Below, one piece after another: positions 2,843 through 63,034 of a stretch of 64,000 nucleotides of DNA. How positions within the stretch are numbered: position 1 is the first letter of the stretch; each line of letters starts with the position of its first letter. The stretch comes from a virus, in IMG/VR virus record IMGVR_UViG_3300028586_000750. One strand, given 5' to 3'. Below the pieces are notes generated by a model, which had not been told where the DNA came from, made no database searches, and saw only the letters and a program-made list of their open reading frames with translations. The translations under genes and the position numbers were made by a program.

Positions 2843-3559
2843 ATGGAACTTACTGTACAACGACTTGAACAAATCATTGCATCCCAAAAAAGGGTTGTAG
2901 TGGTTACGGGTGCGGGCACTTCAACCTTGTCAGGTATCCCTGACTTCGTTAGCGTGGACAGTGGGTGGGAAGGTGATATCCCTCGTGAAGTGGCTATCAG
3001 TAAAAACTATTTCCATGCTTACCCTAAAAGTTTTTGGAAAGTCTACAAGAAGCTTTTTCTTCCTAAAGTCAGGGCTGAGCTTGCACCATCTAAAGCTCAT
3101 ACTTTTTTGAAAAAGCTTGAAGATTTTGCGGAAGTAGAAATCTACACGCAAAACGTTGACGGTTTACATCAAGCTGCTGGTAGCACTAATGTCACTGAGG
3201 TCCACGGTAACGCAAATACTCTTACTTGCGTTAAATGTCGCAACCAAGTGGATGTTTGGGATGTTTACGATAGTGTTGTACCTATTTGCGAGCTTTGTGG
3301 CAAACTTTTGAAACCAGATGTTGTCTTGTTCGGGGAGAAAAGTCCTGGTTACGGGAAAATGTTTGATGCTTTGAACGGACCTGGTGTTCTTCTTATGATG
3401 GGAACAAGTCTTAACGTAGCCCCTGTTAATCAAATGCCTTTGGAAGCCGCTCAATTCGCTCCCCATTTATGGCGTGTGTATTGGGATAAAACTGCTACTG
3501 CGGAGCAAGAACCTTTGTTCCATCATTACGTGAATACTGATTTTTCAGAGCTAAACTAA
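2843..3559 (+). CDS. cobB: Sir2/CobB-family NAD-dependent deacylase
   Basis: GAGTSTLSGIPDF, TQNVDGLH, HGN, CxxC...CxxC zinc site, KPDVVLFGE, GTSLNVAP. Confidence 0.95.
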   Translation: MELTVQRLEQIIASQKRVVVVTGAGTSTLSGIPDFVSVDSGWEGDIPREVAISKNYFHAYPKSFWKVYKKLFLPKVRAELAPSKAHTFLKKLEDFAEVEIYTQNVDGLHQAAGSTNVTEVHGNANTLTCVKCRNQVDVWDVYDSVVPICELCGKLLKPDVVLFGEKSPGYGKMFDALNGPGVLLMMGTSLNVAPVNQMPLEAAQFAPHLWRVYWDKTATAEQEPLFHHYVNTDFSELN

Positions 3560-3604
3560 AAAACTTTGGCCCCACCAGTTAATTCTGGTGGGGCCAAAGT
3601 TTTT
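3559..3604. terminator. CCCCACCAG-core palindrome (bidirectional terminator-like)
   Basis: 20-bp stem aaaaactttggccccaccag / TTAATT / complement, between convergent genes. Confidence 0.85.
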
Positions 3605-13627: not shown

Positions 13628-14296
13628 ATGAAACCTATAATTTTCTTAGACTTTGATGGTGTGATCAATGCTATCCCACGTGAGCGCATTTACGTGGGGC
13701 CTGAACCAGCGGACATTCTTGATATGTACCCTTCAAAGAACTGGGAATGGAAAGACGTTACGCCTGACCTAGAAACCCATTTTGAGCTAGACCAAATCAC
13801 TACTGCGCATACTAACGGTCGTGACTACAAAATCACTTATTCTTCTGAGGTCGTAGCTGCATTACGTGAACTAATTGTTGAAGACAAAGTGCAGTTCATC
13901 TGGTTAACGACATGGCGTGAAGATGCTATGTCTAAGTTGAACCCTATTCTTGGTTTCCCTAACGACAAAACATCTAGTTTGCAGTGGTTTGATACTTCTA
14001 TCAGTCACACAAACCCTCAAATGGGTAAATATTACGGGATGATTGACTACTTTGAAAAACTTGAACGCGATAACGTTGATTTAGACGGAACATCCATTGT
14101 CTGGGTTGATGATGTAGCTACAATTGGGTTTGTTGATTTGACTGATAAAGAGAAAAAGTTCCGTATTGAGCATTATGCTGCTTCACCAGTTCTTTTATAC
14201 CCTTCTCTTGTAGTTAAACCAGATATGCATTTTGGTATTTCTCGTGCTGAATTGAAAAGCATTCAGGATTTTGTTGAAGAGCAGAACAAGCGATAA
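13628..14296 (+). CDS. HAD-family phosphatase (Swiss-Army-knife RNA-repair HAD type) copy 1
   Basis: FLDFDGVIN motif I, WLTTWR, VWVDD; leaderless. Confidence 0.8.
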   Translation: MKPIIFLDFDGVINAIPRERIYVGPEPADILDMYPSKNWEWKDVTPDLETHFELDQITTAHTNGRDYKITYSSEVVAALRELIVEDKVQFIWLTTWREDAMSKLNPILGFPNDKTSSLQWFDTSISHTNPQMGKYYGMIDYFEKLERDNVDLDGTSIVWVDDVATIGFVDLTDKEKKFRIEHYAASPVLLYPSLVVKPDMHFGISRAELKSIQDFVEEQNKR

Positions 14297-14928: not shown

Positions 14929-14966
14929 AAGTAAGGCCCCACCAGATGACTGGTGGGGCCTTACTT
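14929..14966. terminator. CCCCACCAG-core palindrome
   Basis: 17-bp stem, ATGA loop, convergent genes. Confidence 0.85.
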
Positions 14967-14975
14967 TATTGTGTG

Positions 14976-15110
14976 CTACTCAGCGAGGATACCACTGGCA
15001 CCCGACACGCTCACAATAGCGGTTGCGTTGGTGTCCTCCACCGTTGCAACAGCCGGAGTGGCCGTGGTAAGGGCAAGAACAAAAACGATGCTAGCTCCGA
15101 AGACCTTCAT
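14976..15110 (-). CDS. 44-aa secreted-type peptide, paralogue of 60932..61063
   Basis: Hand-translated MKVFGASIVFVLALTTATPAVATVEDTNATAIVSVSGASGILAE; RBS AAAGGAAAA; own promoter. Confidence 0.8.
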   Translation of the reverse strand: MKVFGASIVFVLALTTATPAVATVEDTNATAIVSVSGASGILAE

Positions 15111-15149
15111 GATGTTTTCCTTTCTCAGTGGTTTTTCTCTCTAACAACA

Positions 15150-15178
15150 AGTATACGGGTTTACCCCATCAAGTGCAA
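15150..15178 (-). promoter_or_regulatory. Sigma70-type promoter of the 44-aa peptide
   Basis: TTGCAC-N17-TATACT on the minus strand. Confidence 0.7.
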
Positions 15179-15298
15179 CCTTTTGGGCCATTCATTTGGA
15201 CATATTTGATAACAAAAGTTCACTTGGTTTTCTGGCCATGAACCGGGTTTTCTACAAACACTGATTATAGATATGTAGAAAACATCCGAGGGGAACAC

Positions 15299-15766
15299 GT
15301 GTTAAAAATTTTACGCGCACAACGACAAAGCGCAAGTGAAGAGGGCTTCACTCTTATCGAGTTAATGATCGTTGTGGTCATTATTGGCATCCTCGCTGCT
15401 ATTGCTATTCCAATCTTCGCAAACCAACAGAAATCAGCTATAGCGGCTGGCGTTAAGTCAGATGTTAAGAACACCAACACAAACATCGCTACAGCGCTTA
15501 TTAAAAACCCTAAATCAGATGATGTATCTGCTGATTTTAAAGAGTCAGAAGTTTATAACGGTCACCCTGTAACAAAAACAGAAGCTGACGCAGGAAAAAA
15601 TGTTGTCATTAGCGATACCAGAACAACTATTACAATAGGTGATGGAACCGGAGAACGCATAGCTTGGGACCGCTACATTGTGGTAGGTAAAAATCCTTCT
15701 GTTAGTTCTACGTTCAGTGTTACTTACGACGTAAAAACAGGTAAAACAACAACAGTGGGAGCATAA
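15299..15766 (+). CDS. Type IV pilin, Cys-free tail
   Basis: GTG start; SEEG|FTLIELMIVVVIIGILAAIAIPIFANQQK. Confidence 0.93.
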   Translation: MLKILRAQRQSASEEGFTLIELMIVVVIIGILAAIAIPIFANQQKSAIAAGVKSDVKNTNTNIATALIKNPKSDDVSADFKESEVYNGHPVTKTEADAGKNVVISDTRTTITIGDGTGERIAWDRYIVVGKNPSVSSTFSVTYDVKTGKTTTVGA

Positions 15767-15767
15767 A

Positions 15768-16322
15768 ATGGTTAACAGACTCAAAAACTTACGTAGTTCA
15801 GGCTCAGAAGAAGGCTTTACTCTCATTGAGTTAATGATCGTTGTAGTGATCATTGGTATCCTCGCTGCTATTGCTATACCAATTTTCGCCAATCAACAGA
15901 AAGCTGCTCAACTTGCTGCTGTTAAATCTGACGTTAAGAACACTGCGTTAGCAATTCAAACTCACGCGACTAAAGGTTTCTACCCAACAACTGACGCTCA
16001 ACTGCAAGCAACAAAAATTAGTGTCAGTGCACCAGGGAATTTTGACCTTACACGCAACAACTATCTAGTATGTACCACTAAAGGCGGCGCTAATACTAAT
16101 GAGTACGCTGTTGCTGCGTTATCTAATGACGGTAAAACTCTTGTCTACTACACGTCAACCGAAGGATTAAAAACTTCTGAGACTATTACCTTAGCTAATA
16201 GCATTGCAGGTTCTTGTGCTCAAATGGGTATCACAGTTGACTCTGCTACAGGTTTTGGCGCATGGGCTTACGGCGGGACAACAACTAAAGCTTGGTACCC
16301 TTGGACTGGAGTAACAGCATAA
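15768..16322 (+). CDS. Type IV pilin, Cys-containing tail
   Basis: G|FTLIEL motif; two Cys. Confidence 0.95.
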   Translation: MVNRLKNLRSSGSEEGFTLIELMIVVVIIGILAAIAIPIFANQQKAAQLAAVKSDVKNTALAIQTHATKGFYPTTDAQLQATKISVSAPGNFDLTRNNYLVCTTKGGANTNEYAVAALSNDGKTLVYYTSTEGLKTSETITLANSIAGSCAQMGITVDSATGFGAWAYGGTTTKAWYPWTGVTA

Positions 16323-16324
16323 TT

Positions 16325-16804
16325 ATGATTAATAGACTTAAAAACTTACGTAACTCAGGTTCAGAGGAAGGGTTTACCCTTATCGAGCTAATGATTGTTG
16401 TTGTGATTATTGGCATCCTTGCTGCGATTGCTATTCCTATTTTCGCAAACCAACAGAAGGCCGCTATAGACGCTAGTATAAAAAGCGACGTGAAAAATGG
16501 CGTTTTGGCAATTGAAACTTATTTTGCTCAGCATCCAGAAAAGACAACTTTTACTGCTGCTGATTTGTCCGGTCAATTTAAACCAGGCAAAGACACACGA
16601 ATTGAGGTTTGGGGTACCAAAAAAGCTTACTGTGTCATTGGAAGCAACCCAAACTCTGGTTCATACAACTTAAGTCCTGGCGCATCTGGTAATGACCCAA
16701 CTTACTACTTGTATTATAACCTTGAAGGGTACAAGAAAGACGCACAACGCTGGTCTTTTGAAGCCTGTCGTGATGGTTCACCTGTAGTATTTACTACTTC
16801 TTAG
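16325..16804 (+). CDS. Type IV pilin, Cys-containing tail
   Basis: Start reassigned to MINRLKN (16325); G|FTLIEL motif; two Cys. Confidence 0.95.
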   Translation: MINRLKNLRNSGSEEGFTLIELMIVVVIIGILAAIAIPIFANQQKAAIDASIKSDVKNGVLAIETYFAQHPEKTTFTAADLSGQFKPGKDTRIEVWGTKKAYCVIGSNPNSGSYNLSPGASGNDPTYYLYYNLEGYKKDAQRWSFEACRDGSPVVFTTS

Positions 16805-19684: not shown

Positions 19685-20668
19685 ATGGTCCATACTGCGC
19701 ACAAACTGAATAAGCTATTCCTTGTAGGGTTAGCTGTTCTTGCTGTTGTTGCTTTAACTCGCATATTCTTTGATGCCCAATTCCAGCTTGGTAGTTCACT
19801 TCAAAACTTATTGAGCTTATCCATAGCTGTTATTATTGAGTCCACGCCATTTGTTATTCTTGGTATTGTTCTTTCCGGATTGTTGCAAAAGTTTGTGTCT
19901 TATGACCATGTTGCTCGCTATCTTCCGAAGAATGCTTTCCTCCGAAGAGCACTACTTTCATTAATGGGAGTGTTCATTCCAGTCTGCGAATGTGGAAATG
20001 TTCCTTTAGCCCGTGGATTGATACTTAAAGGGTTTACTGTTCCAGAAGCAATGACATTTTTGCTAGCCGCACCAATCCTTAACCCCTTGACCATTATCAC
20101 TACATACCAAGCTTTTGGTTGGGATAACGGCATTCTTGTCGGACGTATCATTGGTGGATTTGTGATTGCCAACTTGATTGCTTGGTATTTCAGCACTCAC
20201 GCTAATCCTCATGGGTTACTTACCGAAAAGTTTGAAGCTGCATGCAATCACAGTCATGGCATGGGAAAAGACATAAAGTTTTTCAATACGTTTCTTTCCG
20301 AAGTAAGCGTTATTATGCCCACTTTAATTTTAGGTAGTTTCATCGCTGGTGGCATACATGCTTTCGTTCCACAAGAGTTCTTAACACAAGTTGCGTCCAA
20401 CCCAGTTTCTGCTGTGTTAGTGATGATTGTTATGGCTTTCGTTATTGCAATCTGTTCAAACGTTGATGCTTTCTTTGCTCTTTCGTTTGCATCTATTTTC
20501 CCTTCTTACGCAATCCTAGTGTTCCTTCTTGTAGGTCCACTTGTTGATATCAAAATGTTGGCACTATTAAGGACAACATTCAAAACCTCCACTGTTGCTA
20601 CAATAGCTGTTCTTGTAGTGATATTAAGTGTAACAATCAGCTTAGGGGTAAGCACTTTCTATGCTTAA
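19685..20668 (+). CDS. DUF318-family permease (putative metal transport)
   Basis: PVCECGNVPLARGL, FLLAAPILNP, ICSNVDAF, GPLVDIK; multi-TM. Confidence 0.9.
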   Translation: MVHTAHKLNKLFLVGLAVLAVVALTRIFFDAQFQLGSSLQNLLSLSIAVIIESTPFVILGIVLSGLLQKFVSYDHVARYLPKNAFLRRALLSLMGVFIPVCECGNVPLARGLILKGFTVPEAMTFLLAAPILNPLTIITTYQAFGWDNGILVGRIIGGFVIANLIAWYFSTHANPHGLLTEKFEAACNHSHGMGKDIKFFNTFLSEVSVIMPTLILGSFIAGGIHAFVPQEFLTQVASNPVSAVLVMIVMAFVIAICSNVDAFFALSFASIFPSYAILVFLLVGPLVDIKMLALLRTTFKTSTVATIAVLVVILSVTISLGVSTFYA

Positions 20669-32573: not shown

Positions 32574-32705
32574 ATGAGCAAAATAATTATCATATCAAGC
32601 ATTGCAGCGATTACTTCGGCAACTGTTGCAACGTTTGTTTGGCTAATGTATAAAGAGAACACAGAATGGGACTTGTGGACAACTGAATTCTCCACAACTA
32701 CCTAA
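32574..32705 (+). CDS. 43-aa single-TM peptide
   Basis: Hand-translated MSKIIIISSIAAITSATVATFVWLMYKENTEWDLWTTEFSTTT; RBS AAGGA. Confidence 0.5.
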   Translation: MSKIIIISSIAAITSATVATFVWLMYKENTEWDLWTTEFSTTT

Positions 32706-45078: not shown

Positions 45079-45663
45079 ATGGCTAACAAAGTTGTTGTTT
45101 TTATGGACTTTGATGGGGTCATTAATTGGCATGGCACTTCCCGTAGTCAGGTCAAGAAGTATGCTGATGCTTTCGGTTACTGGCGTCGTCACTCTGTCCC
45201 TCTTGACAGTGGTGTAGCTGGTGGGTGGGGCACGCATAGCACCACTTGGCAGGATATCTCATGGTCTGCTGAGCTTGTCAAAAAGCTCATGGACCTTAAA
45301 GACGACACAGGTTATGTGTGGCGTTGGCTCAGCACTTGGGTTAATGAGACTGAGAAACTTGACCGTATCCTTGGCATCAAGTCAGATGGTTGGGTTAATT
45401 GGAACCCTTATCCGGTTCCTTCGGTTGCTGATATCTCTGCTTACCGTTGTGCTCGCAAACTTGATGTTGTTCTTGATTTTGCTAAGAACAACCCGGATAC
45501 ACCTTTTGTTTGGGTTGACGACGAGGCTGTAGACTTGTGGACAGATGACCACGCGGCTTCTATGACTGCCCCTCATTTGGTTGTTAAGCCTTGGGAGAAG
45601 TTCGGTTTGGTGAAGCATGACCTAGCGAAAATCTCTGACTTCGTTAAAATGCACTCTGTATAA
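45079..45663 (+). CDS. HAD_SAK-type phosphatase copy 2
   Basis: FMDFDGVIN, WLSTW, FVWVDD; RBS AAGGAAGGAG. Confidence 0.82.
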   Translation: MANKVVVFMDFDGVINWHGTSRSQVKKYADAFGYWRRHSVPLDSGVAGGWGTHSTTWQDISWSAELVKKLMDLKDDTGYVWRWLSTWVNETEKLDRILGIKSDGWVNWNPYPVPSVADISAYRCARKLDVVLDFAKNNPDTPFVWVDDEAVDLWTDDHAASMTAPHLVVKPWEKFGLVKHDLAKISDFVKMHSV

Positions 45664-52155: not shown

Positions 52156-52896
52156 TTACCTGCGGAACATAGCAAGTAGACGAAGAATTTCAATGTAAAG
52201 CCATACGAAGGCAGTGGTGATACCGAAAGCACCAACCCATTCCATGCGTTTTGGAGCTTGGTTGCGTACGCCGTTCTCAATGAACTCATAAGAAATTACA
52301 ATGGTGTATGAGGCAAGTAACGCACCTAGAATACCAATAATAATACCGAAAATGCCGAGGTCAGAACGAATACCAAAGGCACCATCTGTAAGTCCTGTGG
52401 CTGAAAGAACAAAGTTTAGAAGACTGAACAGAACATAACCTGCGAAAGCAACACCGAAAATTTTATTTAGACGAGGCGTTGTGCGGAAGACTTTGGTATG
52501 CGATAAGAACATCACTACAATGAAAACTGATGTTGTTGCAAGTAAAGCCTGAACAACAATACCAGGATACTGTAACTCTAAGCTTAACGACATAAGAGCA
52601 ACAAAGACACCTTGTAGCCCTGCGTAAGTTAATAGAACTACTGGGTTAGTAATGCGCTTGAAGCCAATAACAAGCGCTAGAACAATTGTCGCCCCAATTA
52701 GTCCATAGAAAAGACCTTGTGTAAGGAAAGGTAGTAGAACAAAAATTCCTATACCTGCACCGACGAGAACTGTTACAAAGGACATAATTGTCTTGACGAC
52801 AGTTCCTTCATAAGTCATTACCTCTGTGCCAGCATTGAAGCTAGGACGGTAGTCCTTTTGGAACGCTTCATTGTTTGTAAAGACGGGTGATGCCAT
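52156..52896 (-). CDS. Bax inhibitor-1/YccA-family membrane protein
   Basis: MTYEGTV.KT, YPGIVVQALLAT, EW.GAFGI..AFVWLYIEILRLL. Confidence 0.88.
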   Translation of the reverse strand: MASPVFTNNEAFQKDYRPSFNAGTEVMTYEGTVVKTIMSFVTVLVGAGIGIFVLLPFLTQGLFYGLIGATIVLALVIGFKRITNPVVLLTYAGLQGVFVALMSLSLELQYPGIVVQALLATTSVFIVVMFLSHTKVFRTTPRLNKIFGVAFAGYVLFSLLNFVLSATGLTDGAFGIRSDLGIFGIIIGILGALLASYTIVISYEFIENGVRNQAPKRMEWVGAFGITTAFVWLYIEILRLLAMFRR

Positions 52897-60849: not shown

Positions 60850-60879
60850 TTGCATCTAGCCAAGCTTTACCCCTATACT
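60850..60879 (+). promoter_or_regulatory. Sigma70-type promoter of the 43-aa peptide
   Basis: TTGCAT-N18-TATACT. Confidence 0.65.
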
Positions 60880-60931
60880 CGTAATAACGAGGCAAGCACC
60901 CTGCTAAGCCTCTTACGTAAAGGAAAAGCTA

Positions 60932-61063
60932 ATGAAGGTTCTCGGACTGGTCGCAGTGATGACTTCCCTTGGTTTCAGCGCGGTTACCCCCGTTGCAGAG
61001 ATTGAGACTAACGTCACCATCGTTTCCGTTTCAGGCTCTGCGGGTATCCTCGCGGACGCGTAA
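60932..61063 (+). CDS. 43-aa secreted-type peptide, paralogue of 14976..15110
   Basis: Hand-translated MKVLGLVAVMTSLGFSAVTPVAEIETNVTIVSVSGSAGILADA; RBS AAAGGAAAA. Confidence 0.8.
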   Translation: MKVLGLVAVMTSLGFSAVTPVAEIETNVTIVSVSGSAGILADA

Positions 61064-61074
61064 CCTTCGTTAGA

Positions 61075-61118
61075 AAGGAAAGGGCCTCACCAGAATTAAC
61101 TGGTGAGGCCCTTTCCTT
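61075..61118. terminator. CCTCACCAG-variant palindrome
   Basis: 19-bp stem, AATTAA loop, convergent genes. Confidence 0.85.
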
Positions 61119-61147: not shown

Positions 61148-61927
61148 TTAGTTATCGTTGAAAGTGACAGCTAGTTCATCAAGACGAGACTGAACAGCAA
61201 TCAAGTGACGGTTAAAGCGGTAGAAACCATCTTCACTAATCCTGTCCTGAATAGCTTTAGCTTGTTCGCGGAAAACAGAAATGAGTGGAGTGTACTTTTT
61301 AACCAAATGAATAGTCATGCTTTTATTAGCGGACGTGTAGTGAAGGCTACCTGCGTTATCGTAAAAGTCAGCAAACTTCACAAGGAAAACAGGGAAGTCG
61401 TTAGTGATAGCCTCTTCAACATGCTGAGCGTAAATAGCACGTTTTTCATCTTTGGTCAATGAAGCAGCATCAGGGTTAATAGGGTTAGAGACAGCTAAAA
61501 CAATACGGCCAACTTCCGCCCCAAAACGACCTGAAAGGAATGAGATAGCTCGCATACGAACATCTTCTTCACTTAGACCCGTTGCGTCTTGACCAGCTAA
61601 ATCTTCAACAATTTCATTAGGGTGGTCCTCTACAGTGTCATGGAGGACAGCGGCAATAAGGATATCAACATCAACAATGTGATAGTAACGAAGAAGACGC
61701 AAAGTGTTACGAAGAGGATGCGTGATATAAGTATCACGAGGCAATCCACCACGGTTAGCGCGAGTGTCATCACGATGTAGGTATGATGCGATTGAAATGG
61801 ACTCGCTTAAATCATCCAAACGAGCAACATTACGTTCACGAGCTAGCTCCATGATAGCAGCAGCTAGTAACGAGCCGTCCATCTTTTTTAGTGGAAGGGA
61901 ACTGATTTTCTCATATAGTGTCTTCAT
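61148..61927 (-). CDS. Stand-alone RelA/SpoT-type HD hydrolase (Mesh1/SAH-like)
   Basis: H...TR...YITHP, AAVLHDTVED, VKFADFYDN; no synthetase domain. Confidence 0.85.
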   Translation of the reverse strand: MKTLYEKISSLPLKKMDGSLLAAAIMELARERNVARLDDLSESISIASYLHRDDTRANRGGLPRDTYITHPLRNTLRLLRYYHIVDVDILIAAVLHDTVEDHPNEIVEDLAGQDATGLSEEDVRMRAISFLSGRFGAEVGRIVLAVSNPINPDAASLTKDEKRAIYAQHVEEAITNDFPVFLVKFADFYDNAGSLHYTSANKSMTIHLVKKYTPLISVFREQAKAIQDRISEDGFYRFNRHLIAVQSRLDELAVTFNDN

Positions 61928-61958: not shown

Positions 61959-62399
61959 CTACCTGCGTCGTACTTTACGTAAAGACTTAACAATACCAAC
62001 AACAGCAAGAATAAGACCTAAACCAAACAGACCGGCAGAAACAAAGAACCAAATTTGCGCTTGGTCGCCAGTTCCATCAACAAGAACATCAGGGCTACCA
62101 TCAGAATAGAAAACATCTAACTTGTAAGGTCCACCCTCTTCCTTATAAGGAATTTCAGTTGTAGCAAACGATGGAGCAGCAGCTTCGTATGTGGCATCAC
62201 CAATCTCATACTCAACAGTTGGATAAATTTCATATCCGTTCTTTGTCTCTTCAAAAGCGTAGCTCTTAACTATTGAAGAGACAGATGTGGCATTCGTAGC
62301 TGTGTCTTTAATTTGTAAACCATAGCCGCCAATTGCTGCACCACCTATAAGAGTGATGAGAGTAACGATTGCTAATGTGATTGTGCTCCAAAGTCGCAT
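61959..62399 (-). CDS. DUF3592-like membrane protein
   Basis: TM, YPTVEYEIGDATY, V.YSDGSP, C-terminal TM. Confidence 0.6.
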   Translation of the reverse strand: MRLWSTITLAIVTLITLIGGAAIGGYGLQIKDTATNATSVSSIVKSYAFEETKNGYEIYPTVEYEIGDATYEAAAPSFATTEIPYKEEGGPYKLDVFYSDGSPDVLVDGTGDQAQIWFFVSAGLFGLGLILAVVGIVKSLRKVRRR

Positions 62400-63034
62400 T
62401 ATTTTCCTTCTTTAAAAAATTGTTGTATTTGTTGAATGTCAGTAGGAGTAATTCCTTCTGCACTATGTGGTGTGTAAGTTACATGTTTAAGACCAAGAGA
62501 CACTAATTTGTTTTCAGCTTGTTCCGTAGTTGCCGTATCATCAATCCAAACAAATTTTTGCGAGGAATTGATACTCTCTGCTTTTAATAATGCATCCAGC
62601 TTCCCCACGTCTGAACCTTTATGGTCGTTCCATTCTAGGTATCCGACTGAATGAATATTAAAAAGTTTGTCAAGCTTATTTGGTGCTTCATGTCTCCATG
62701 TTGTTAACCAAATGAAATCAACATCTTCTTGCTGTGAAAGCTCACTCAGCTTTTCTGTTGAATGTGAGTTCCAAGATATATCTACTGAACGAGAACCTAA
62801 CCCGAAAAATACACAGTCGTTTAATCGCGCATAAGAGTTCCCTAGAGTTTCCATATCCAAATGTAGACGAAATAATTCATCAAATTCAGCTTCTGAATAA
62901 AACAAAGCAGCAACACCATCAACATCGCAATATACACGATGAGGAGCTTGTAGTGCTTTTATGTCAACACCAGGAATGTAACTAGACATACTTCTAGCAT
63001 AACTTACAAACTTAAAACGCAGCGGAAACGGCAT
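62399..63034 (-). CDS. HAD_SAK-type phosphatase copy 3
   Basis: YCDVDGV, WLTTWR, FVWIDD; start uncertain. Confidence 0.78.
   Translation of the reverse strand: MPFPLRFKFVSYARSMSSYIPGVDIKALQAPHRVYCDVDGVAALFYSEAEFDELFRLHLDMETLGNSYARLNDCVFFGLGSRSVDISWNSHSTEKLSELSQQEDVDFIWLTTWRHEAPNKLDKLFNIHSVGYLEWNDHKGSDVGKLDALLKAESINSSQKFVWIDDTATTEQAENKLVSLGLKHVTYTPHSAEGITPTDIQQIQQFFKEGK

Follow-up and report, generated by a model that had tools for sequence, protein, structure and literature searches.

Two small genes in a 64-kb viral window

The window, that is, the whole 64,000-nucleotide stretch of viral DNA analyzed here (IMG/VR record IMGVR_UViG_3300028586_000750), carries two very small genes of one family. 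The 44-codon pepA (P0003) lies on the minus strand at 14976..15110, and its 43-codon paralog pepB (P0002) lies about 46 kb away on the plus strand at 60932..61063. In the pepA product, a hydrophobic N-terminus resembling a signal is followed by an acidic linker and then by a conserved C-terminal block. It was found that translation reproduces both of the peptides quoted in the original prediction, the 44-aa one being encoded by the minus strand of the pepA interval, while the plus-strand reading is meaningless. The two peptides are 51% identical over the full length (BLASTP, E 1e-07), and a six-frame motif scan and the family HMM detected exactly these two copies in the window. An identical pepA peptide is encoded on 22 contigs from JGI, ENA, and Logan assemblies, the longest of which has 791,407 bp, and a JGI contig of 1,019 bp (L011) covers pepB and its upstream genes. 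Antisense ORFs facing pepA have no counterpart facing pepB, opposite which there is none of at least 60 aa. The locus had been called unannotated, but public gene calls exist, and where they carry a name (for the relatives P0004, P0007, and P0008) it is "hypothetical protein". A scan for small ORFs with an ATG start, an SD-like word, and a hydrophobic N-terminus outside long ORFs retrieved pepA, pepB, and an unrelated 43-codon ORF (32574..32705, plus strand). The latter, with its SD-like word and hydrophobic N-terminal segment outside the longer ORFs, may encode another small membrane protein.

The surroundings of the two genes differ. The pepA gene and a three-gene type IV pilin array (15299..16804) point away from each other; on its other side, pepA converges on a gene for a 111-aa protein, which together with a 155-aa pilin makes up its immediate neighborhood. 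The array itself has four genes in L001/L002/L004 (710-2812) and three in the window strain and in L003, with pepA identical throughout. The pepB gene is flanked by a gene for a 145-aa protein and by the convergent gene for a 259-aa SpoT-like HD hydrolase. In the more distant relatives L110 and L111, whose HD genes are about 62-63% identical, the slot convergent on the HD gene (L110 3274-3524 and L111 3302-3559) is occupied by unrelated small transmembrane ORFs (51, 26, and 85 aa) and contains no pepB homolog. No partner gene conserved at all peptide loci was found. Three distant HAD_SAK_2 phosphatase-type paralogs, about 28-30% identical, are encoded in the window (13628-14296, 45079-45663, and 62399-63034), and two of the three copies put one within 1.3 kb of each peptide gene. 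A functional link to the peptides was dropped, since there are three copies in the window and the 222-aa neighbor of the peptide gene in a distant relative (L113, see below) is not a HAD protein. Elsewhere in the window are genes for a Bax-inhibitor-1-like membrane protein (52156-52896, minus strand; BaxI_1, E 5e-58) and a Sir2-family protein (2843-3559, plus strand; E 3e-40), while the majority of the window proteins have no Pfam or PHROG match.

Each gene has its own transcription and translation signals. A promoter-like element, TTGCAC-N17-TATACT, precedes pepA (15150..15178, minus strand), and TTGCAT-N18-TATACT precedes pepB (60850..60879, plus strand). The latter lies in an intergenic region that is conserved between strains: in a strain whose neighboring genes are 6-10% diverged, this region differs by only 3.2%. 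The element recurs at orthologous loci (TTGCAT-N17-TATAAT in L013 and TTGCTT-N17-TATACA in L018), and the TTGCAy-N17/18-TATACT class is enriched in the window, with 8 matches against 1.7 expected. The "near-consensus promoter" of the original prediction is present and conserved in four loci, but the wording was too strong, as strict sigma-70 scan criteria give 0 sites at pepA and pepB. The Shine-Dalgarno word AAAGGAAAA is located 5′ of both genes as had been claimed (15115..15123 on the minus strand, 4 nt 5′ of the ATG, for pepA; 60919..60927 on the plus strand for pepB), and the corresponding region of the pepA ortholog is GAGAGGAAAA. The combination of promoter, Shine-Dalgarno word, and terminator is conserved at four loci. 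The 5′ leader of pepB might form a GAGGC..GCCTC hairpin (60889..60912, plus strand). In the divergent intergenic region of pepA and the pilins, comparison by eye revealed a 21-nt block (15194..15214) that is kept in a 617-kb relative despite saturated synonymous sites. Its role might be that of an operator, or it might belong to the pilin promoter.

A hairpin had been proposed as a terminator common to the two genes, and one is present at each. The 17-bp bidirectional hairpin of pepA (14929..14966), common to the convergent 111-aa gene, is a copy of a generic CACCAG-loop-CTGGTG hairpin. There are 12 copies in the window (at 3573, 5516, 10416, 13555, 14940, 29250, 33076, 35320, 48192, 52112, 55416, and 61088) against 0.01 expected, usually flanked by GGCC(C/T) and (G/A)GGCC, and the hairpin appears to be the standard, often bidirectional, terminator of the element. 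The pepB hairpin (61077..61116, plus strand) also belongs to this genome-wide type, and its T tail is weak; because of the short T-run, a terminator scan did not score it. Thus, the generic hairpin marks both genes as ordinary transcription units of the genome and is not evidence of a special relatedness. The copy beside pepA abuts a TGGGAAAAGAC word on one strand. An Rfam scan of the peptide genes gave sub-threshold hairpin matches only, with no family near its threshold. A type I toxin (hok/sok-like) was rejected, since the sok match (23 bits against a gathering score of 59) is driven by the terminator hairpin and there is no Pfam or NCBIfam match.

Family distribution and selection

I found that the family comprises eight sequences, all of 43-44 aa, from at least four lineages. 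A profile HMM search of 1.84 billion representative proteins yielded two further small homologs, P0004 and P0005, and one spurious repeat protein. P0004 occupies the pepA slot of a 617-kb contig, where a leftward pilin gene is followed by the rightward peptide gene and then by leftward genes for a 108-aa protein and a HAD protein. P0005 occupies the pepB slot on a short contig of a third lineage. Two more members were missed by protein searches and were traced via the neighboring HD gene: P0129 is the pepB ortholog of the 617-kb element, and P0130 belongs to a more distant giant element (L113). P0007 and P0008 are strain variants of pepB. By N-terminal similarity and synteny, P0004 belongs with pepA, and P0129 and P0005 belong with pepB. 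Thus, the pepA/pepB duplication preceded the divergence of these lineages, with retention of both copies.

Other searches returned nothing beyond this family. A word-index search of 5.8 billion clustered proteins retrieved the family itself only; peptide-pattern and degenerate-DNA scans of IMG/VR gave no match, and the ESM Atlas gave no usable one. None of the 597 pattern matches in a metagenome contig collection was confirmed, and the collection evidently lacks these samples. There was no family match in Pfam, NCBIfam (both at E up to 10), or PHROGs, and no homolog by tblastn in 50,697 phage records. A PDB profile search gave only a Rossmann-type G-x-x-G-x-x-A strand-loop (E 1.9) and a strand of a metalloprotease C-terminal domain (E 2.7), both of which were rejected as chance look-alikes with insignificant E values. 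As for mimicry of a host protein, six-frame translations of 301 sampled Microbacteriaceae genomes contained no convincing homolog; eight weak partial matches inside long ORFs are about the number expected by chance. As far as seen in these collections, the family is an orphan, and a single small clade of giant phage-like elements (about 0.6-0.8 Mb), obtained from plant litter, accounts for all of its members.

The family members evolve like other protein-coding genes of these elements. Between pepA and P0004, which share 52% identity and align over 44 of 44 codons, dS is about 1.4 and dN/dS is 0.28. The five genes flanking pepA have dN/dS values of 0.06-0.33, with 0.20-0.33 for the neighbors of similar divergence; for the R2K gene near pepA, dS is too saturated for a ratio. 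Comparison of pepB with P0129 and P0005 over 43 of 43 codons gave 0.33 and 0.28, respectively, against 0.08-0.28 for the flanking genes.

The two ends of the peptides are conserved to very different degrees. In every pair, 9-11 of the 12 residues of the C-terminal block are identical (75-92%), while synonymous differences affect 5-9 of the 12 codons, and some serines use AGC in one gene and TCN in the other. This synonymous turnover within a conserved block indicates that the constraint acts on the peptide, not on the DNA or RNA. Identity over the N-terminal 23 columns is only 17-52%, and nothing but their hydrophobic character is retained; in P0130 the N-terminus is unrelated, yet hydrophobic, and is followed by the same C-terminal block. 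Replacements among the pepB strains fall in the N-terminal signal region and at one Ser/Ala position. Six residues are invariant in all eight sequences (M1, V35, G37, G40, L42, and A43 in pepA numbering), which gives a block core of V-x-G-x-x-G-x-L-A, and the ending beyond L-A is variable (E, DA, N, DI, L, or none). The original prediction turned on a C-terminus conserved among homologs, and the C-terminus is indeed conserved and under protein-level selection. The proposed IVSVSG motif survives as part of the majority form, I-V-S-V-S-G-x-x-G-I-L-A, but is not invariant, P0129 having I-A-E-V-N-G instead. A bacterial N-glycosylation sequon (D/E-x-N-x-S/T) in the linker was discarded, as it is not conserved in P0005, P0129, and P0130; ideas of a lasso peptide, a LAXTG-sortase substrate, and a Pup-like C-terminus were rejected on inspection of the alignment. 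Judged by these comparisons of sequences, pepA and pepB are genuine, separately transcribed protein-coding mini-genes under selection.

Proposed export and rival explanations

What might such peptides do? In all eight members, an uncharged run of 16-22 residues begins at residue 3, and at least one site follows the -3/-1 rule. The sites are permissive and differ between the two types: the candidates are A-V-A|T in pepA, V-T-A|D in P0004, and a position after residue 16 in the pepB types, pepB having a Pro at -3 of the site aligned with that of pepA. Cys is absent from all eight members, there is almost no Lys or Arg beyond residue 5, and the net charge following the hydrophobic run is -2 to -4 throughout; the n-region of P0130 has neither Lys nor Arg. 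AlphaFold2, with a six-sequence alignment, predicted a helix at residues 3-16 and no confident structure beyond it, at a low overall confidence (mean pLDDT 60). A cleavable Sec signal peptide would be expected to show just this picture, a variable hydrophobic leader ahead of a short conserved tail, and the swap of the N-terminus in P0130 with retention of the block matches how signal peptides evolve. A resemblance to SipW-cognate/TasA-type signal peptides or to chaplins is not supported, as there is no NCBIfam or Pfam match at E up to 10.

I favor, with a probability of roughly 0.55, the reading that the products are exported and cleaved to acidic peptides of 21-27 residues that act through V-x-G-x-x-G-x-L-A on a target outside the cytoplasm. 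The N-terminal 16-22 uncharged residues would form a generic signal for Sec-type export that signal peptidase I most likely removes, and cleavage would release a Cys-free, net-acidic peptide of that length outside the cytoplasm. The C-terminal block would be the working part and may bind a partner located in the envelope or outside the cell. All three steps (export, cleavage, and action as a ligand) are inferred from the sequences.

The tail could also stay attached to the membrane. MgrB, a small bacterial regulator, is the model for such an uncleaved single-pass micro-protein, in which the N-terminus would face inward and the conserved tail would modulate a membrane or envelope complex from the outer face. 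The uncharged run is long enough in several members to cross a membrane, with Lys2 inside and acidic residues past the run. Moreover, pepB lacks a canonical A-x-A site, and the pepB slot of the more distant relatives holds unrelated small transmembrane ORFs. However, a hydrophobic segment that is conserved at only 17-52% and is replaced in P0130 is atypical for a helix making specific contacts, the predicted helix is only 14 residues long, and it is followed by helix-breaking Pro/Gly and small residues as in cleavable signals. I regard the membrane micro-protein as the main alternative, second in likelihood to the exported peptide, though somewhat unlikely on balance.

Export of a signal is the idea that the original prediction tied to arbitrium. 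RRNPP systems have been described in Firmicutes and in the mobile elements of these bacteria, and the RRNPP signature consists of a small propeptide (10-100 aa), Sec secretion, a receptor of 250-500 aa, TPRs in the receptor, and direct adjacency of the two genes (PMC10075063). With 44 and 43 aa for pepA and pepB and 43-44 aa for all eight members, the peptides are of the right size, and their anatomy makes Sec secretion plausible. At no locus seen, in the window or among the orthologous loci, does a 250-500-aa TPR receptor gene adjoin the peptide gene, so the three receptor-related features are lacking throughout. The 259-aa neighbor of pepB is the SpoT-like HD hydrolase, and the neighbors in L113 are an R2K ATP-grasp enzyme and a 222-aa protein without a significant Pfam match. 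Furthermore, none of the 28 window proteins scanned, including all those of at least 250 aa, has a TPR or HTH match in Pfam. The earlier remark that no AimR-like HTH-TPR gene is adjacent is confirmed at both window loci and extends to the orthologous ones.

Two genes hint at a host among the Microbacteriaceae and not among the Firmicutes. The nearest cellular relatives of the ArsP-type permease (19685-20668) are those of Microbacterium, Agreia, Leucobacter, and Cryobacterium (47-54% identity), and the only relatives of the SpoT-like HD hydrolase (61148-61927) in 50,697 phage records are in five Microbacterium phages of roughly 190 kb. The G+C content of the element is about 41%, and that of Microbacterium is far above this value. 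With the three receptor features lacking at the loci seen and the host hints pointing away from Firmicutes, membership in the arbitrium family is not supported; of the secreted pre-peptide originally proposed, the anatomy stands (the uncharged run, the -3/-1 sites, and the acidic Cys-free tail).

A signaling role of the arbitrium/Phr kind would require a remote receptor. After their release, the few C-terminal residues would be taken back into the cell and recognized by a cytoplasmic receptor whose gene lies elsewhere in the 0.79-Mb genome, so that a decision would follow population density, and the paralogs would be two dialects. The size and layout match AimP/Phr propeptides (the first two criteria of PMC10075063), the genes are stand-alone and look strongly expressed, and the last 0-2 residues past L-A vary between lineages as signal "codes" do. 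Against this, besides the missing receptor-like neighbor, the lack of TPR/HTH matches, and the non-Firmicutes host hints, the strongest conservation lies in a 12-residue block and not in a 5-6-residue tip, and the paralog tips are nearly the same, which would result in cross-talk. Such a system is improbable here.

Still more doubtful is a RiPP-like or tag-like role, in which the peptide would be the substrate of a modifying enzyme, for example, an R2K ATP-grasp ligase, and might end up as an antimicrobial or a modified signal. Peptide ligation is the predicted activity of R2K enzymes, for which no targets are known (PMC4431377). At 7757-9010 of L113, the peptide gene P0130 and an R2K ATP-grasp gene (PF18299/PF14243) are direct divergent neighbors at a distance of 232 bp, the window R2K gene is 2.9 kb from pepA, and the peptide tail is rich in Ser, Thr, Asp, and Glu. 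On the other hand, RiPP precursors do not typically carry a Sec-type leader, R2K genes are missing from the neighborhoods of pepB and its orthologs, and the R2K genes of the two lineages do not match each other at E 1e-3. The lack of Cys removes lanthipeptide, sactipeptide, and thiopeptide chemistry, and the net negative charge is unlike that of most bacteriocins. No immunity or transporter gene is adjacent, and no RiPP modifying enzyme was found directly beside pepA or pepB in the window.

Mimicry of the pilin IIGILAA helix, by which the peptide would interfere with type IV pilus assembly or feed into it, was also part of the original prediction and is very unlikely. Both pepA and its ortholog P0004 are divergent from a pilin gene or array at a distance of 184-188 bp, and the tetrapeptide G-I-L-A is common to the peptides and the pilin N-terminal helix. 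However, no BLASTP alignment of the peptide with the neighboring pilin was obtained even at E 100, and the class III signal (G|F-T-L-x-E) is absent. Pilins adjoin the pepA-type copies only: pepB, P0129, P0005, and P0130 have no pilin neighbor, and at five of the seven loci outside the slot of the pepA lineage no pilin adjoins. The adjacency carries little weight in any case, because the whole region is syntenic between the two genomes. Lastly, a non-functional origin as a chance ORF or a small RNA, suggested by the very short length of the ORFs, is hardly credible, as all eight sequences preserve the reading frame, length, start, and stop with saturated dS and a dN/dS of about 0.3, synonymous turnover occurs inside the amino-acid-conserved block, and no Rfam family comes near its threshold.

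Significance and comparison with known systems

Very small genes are routinely missed or ignored, and here two of them are supported by comparative evidence as selected, stand-alone, and of an export type, in a genome that is among the largest phage-like genomes known. This is a solid piece of small-gene annotation; a communication system is not demonstrated. If the peptides are signals or surface modulators, they would carry phage-encoded peptide biology from Bacillus phages to megaphages whose hosts are probably actinobacteria. If they are neither, a well-defined orphan family with a short functional motif remains. A bolder scenario, which I consider a long shot, is that these giant elements, with a probable actinobacterial host, have infected cells secrete a receptor-unlinked V-x-G-x-x-G-x-L-A peptide, possibly tailored by R2K, which a non-RRNPP sensor encoded in the genome or by the host would read. 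Such a peptide might coordinate infected cells or remodel the cell surface (pili and fibers). If true, this would be megaphage peptide signaling outside the Firmicutes.

Three known systems invite comparison. Graspetides and predicted R2K substrates are likewise short peptides rich in Ser, Thr, Asp, and Glu, and an R2K gene is adjacent in one lineage; the peptides differ in their Sec-type leader, the R2K adjacency is not conserved, and R2K targets are themselves unknown (PMC4431377). With AimP and Phr the peptides share a product of about 40-45 aa, a hydrophobic N-terminal segment that would serve as the export signal, a short and presumably functional C-terminal region, and, as for AimP/Phr, an origin on a phage-like element. 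In contrast to AimP/Phr, they have no adjacent receptor, their conserved region is 12 residues and not 5-6, they show no sequence similarity to the 50,697 phage records, and the likely host is an actinobacterium (Microbacteriaceae) and not a Firmicute. MgrB-type regulators and small hydrophobic phage ORFs form the third system. The peptides have no PHROG homology, and their hydrophobic segment, unlike that of MgrB-type proteins, is the least conserved part and looks cleavable; what they have in common with these small proteins is a length below 50 aa, a single N-terminal hydrophobic segment, and a conserved part that would point outward.
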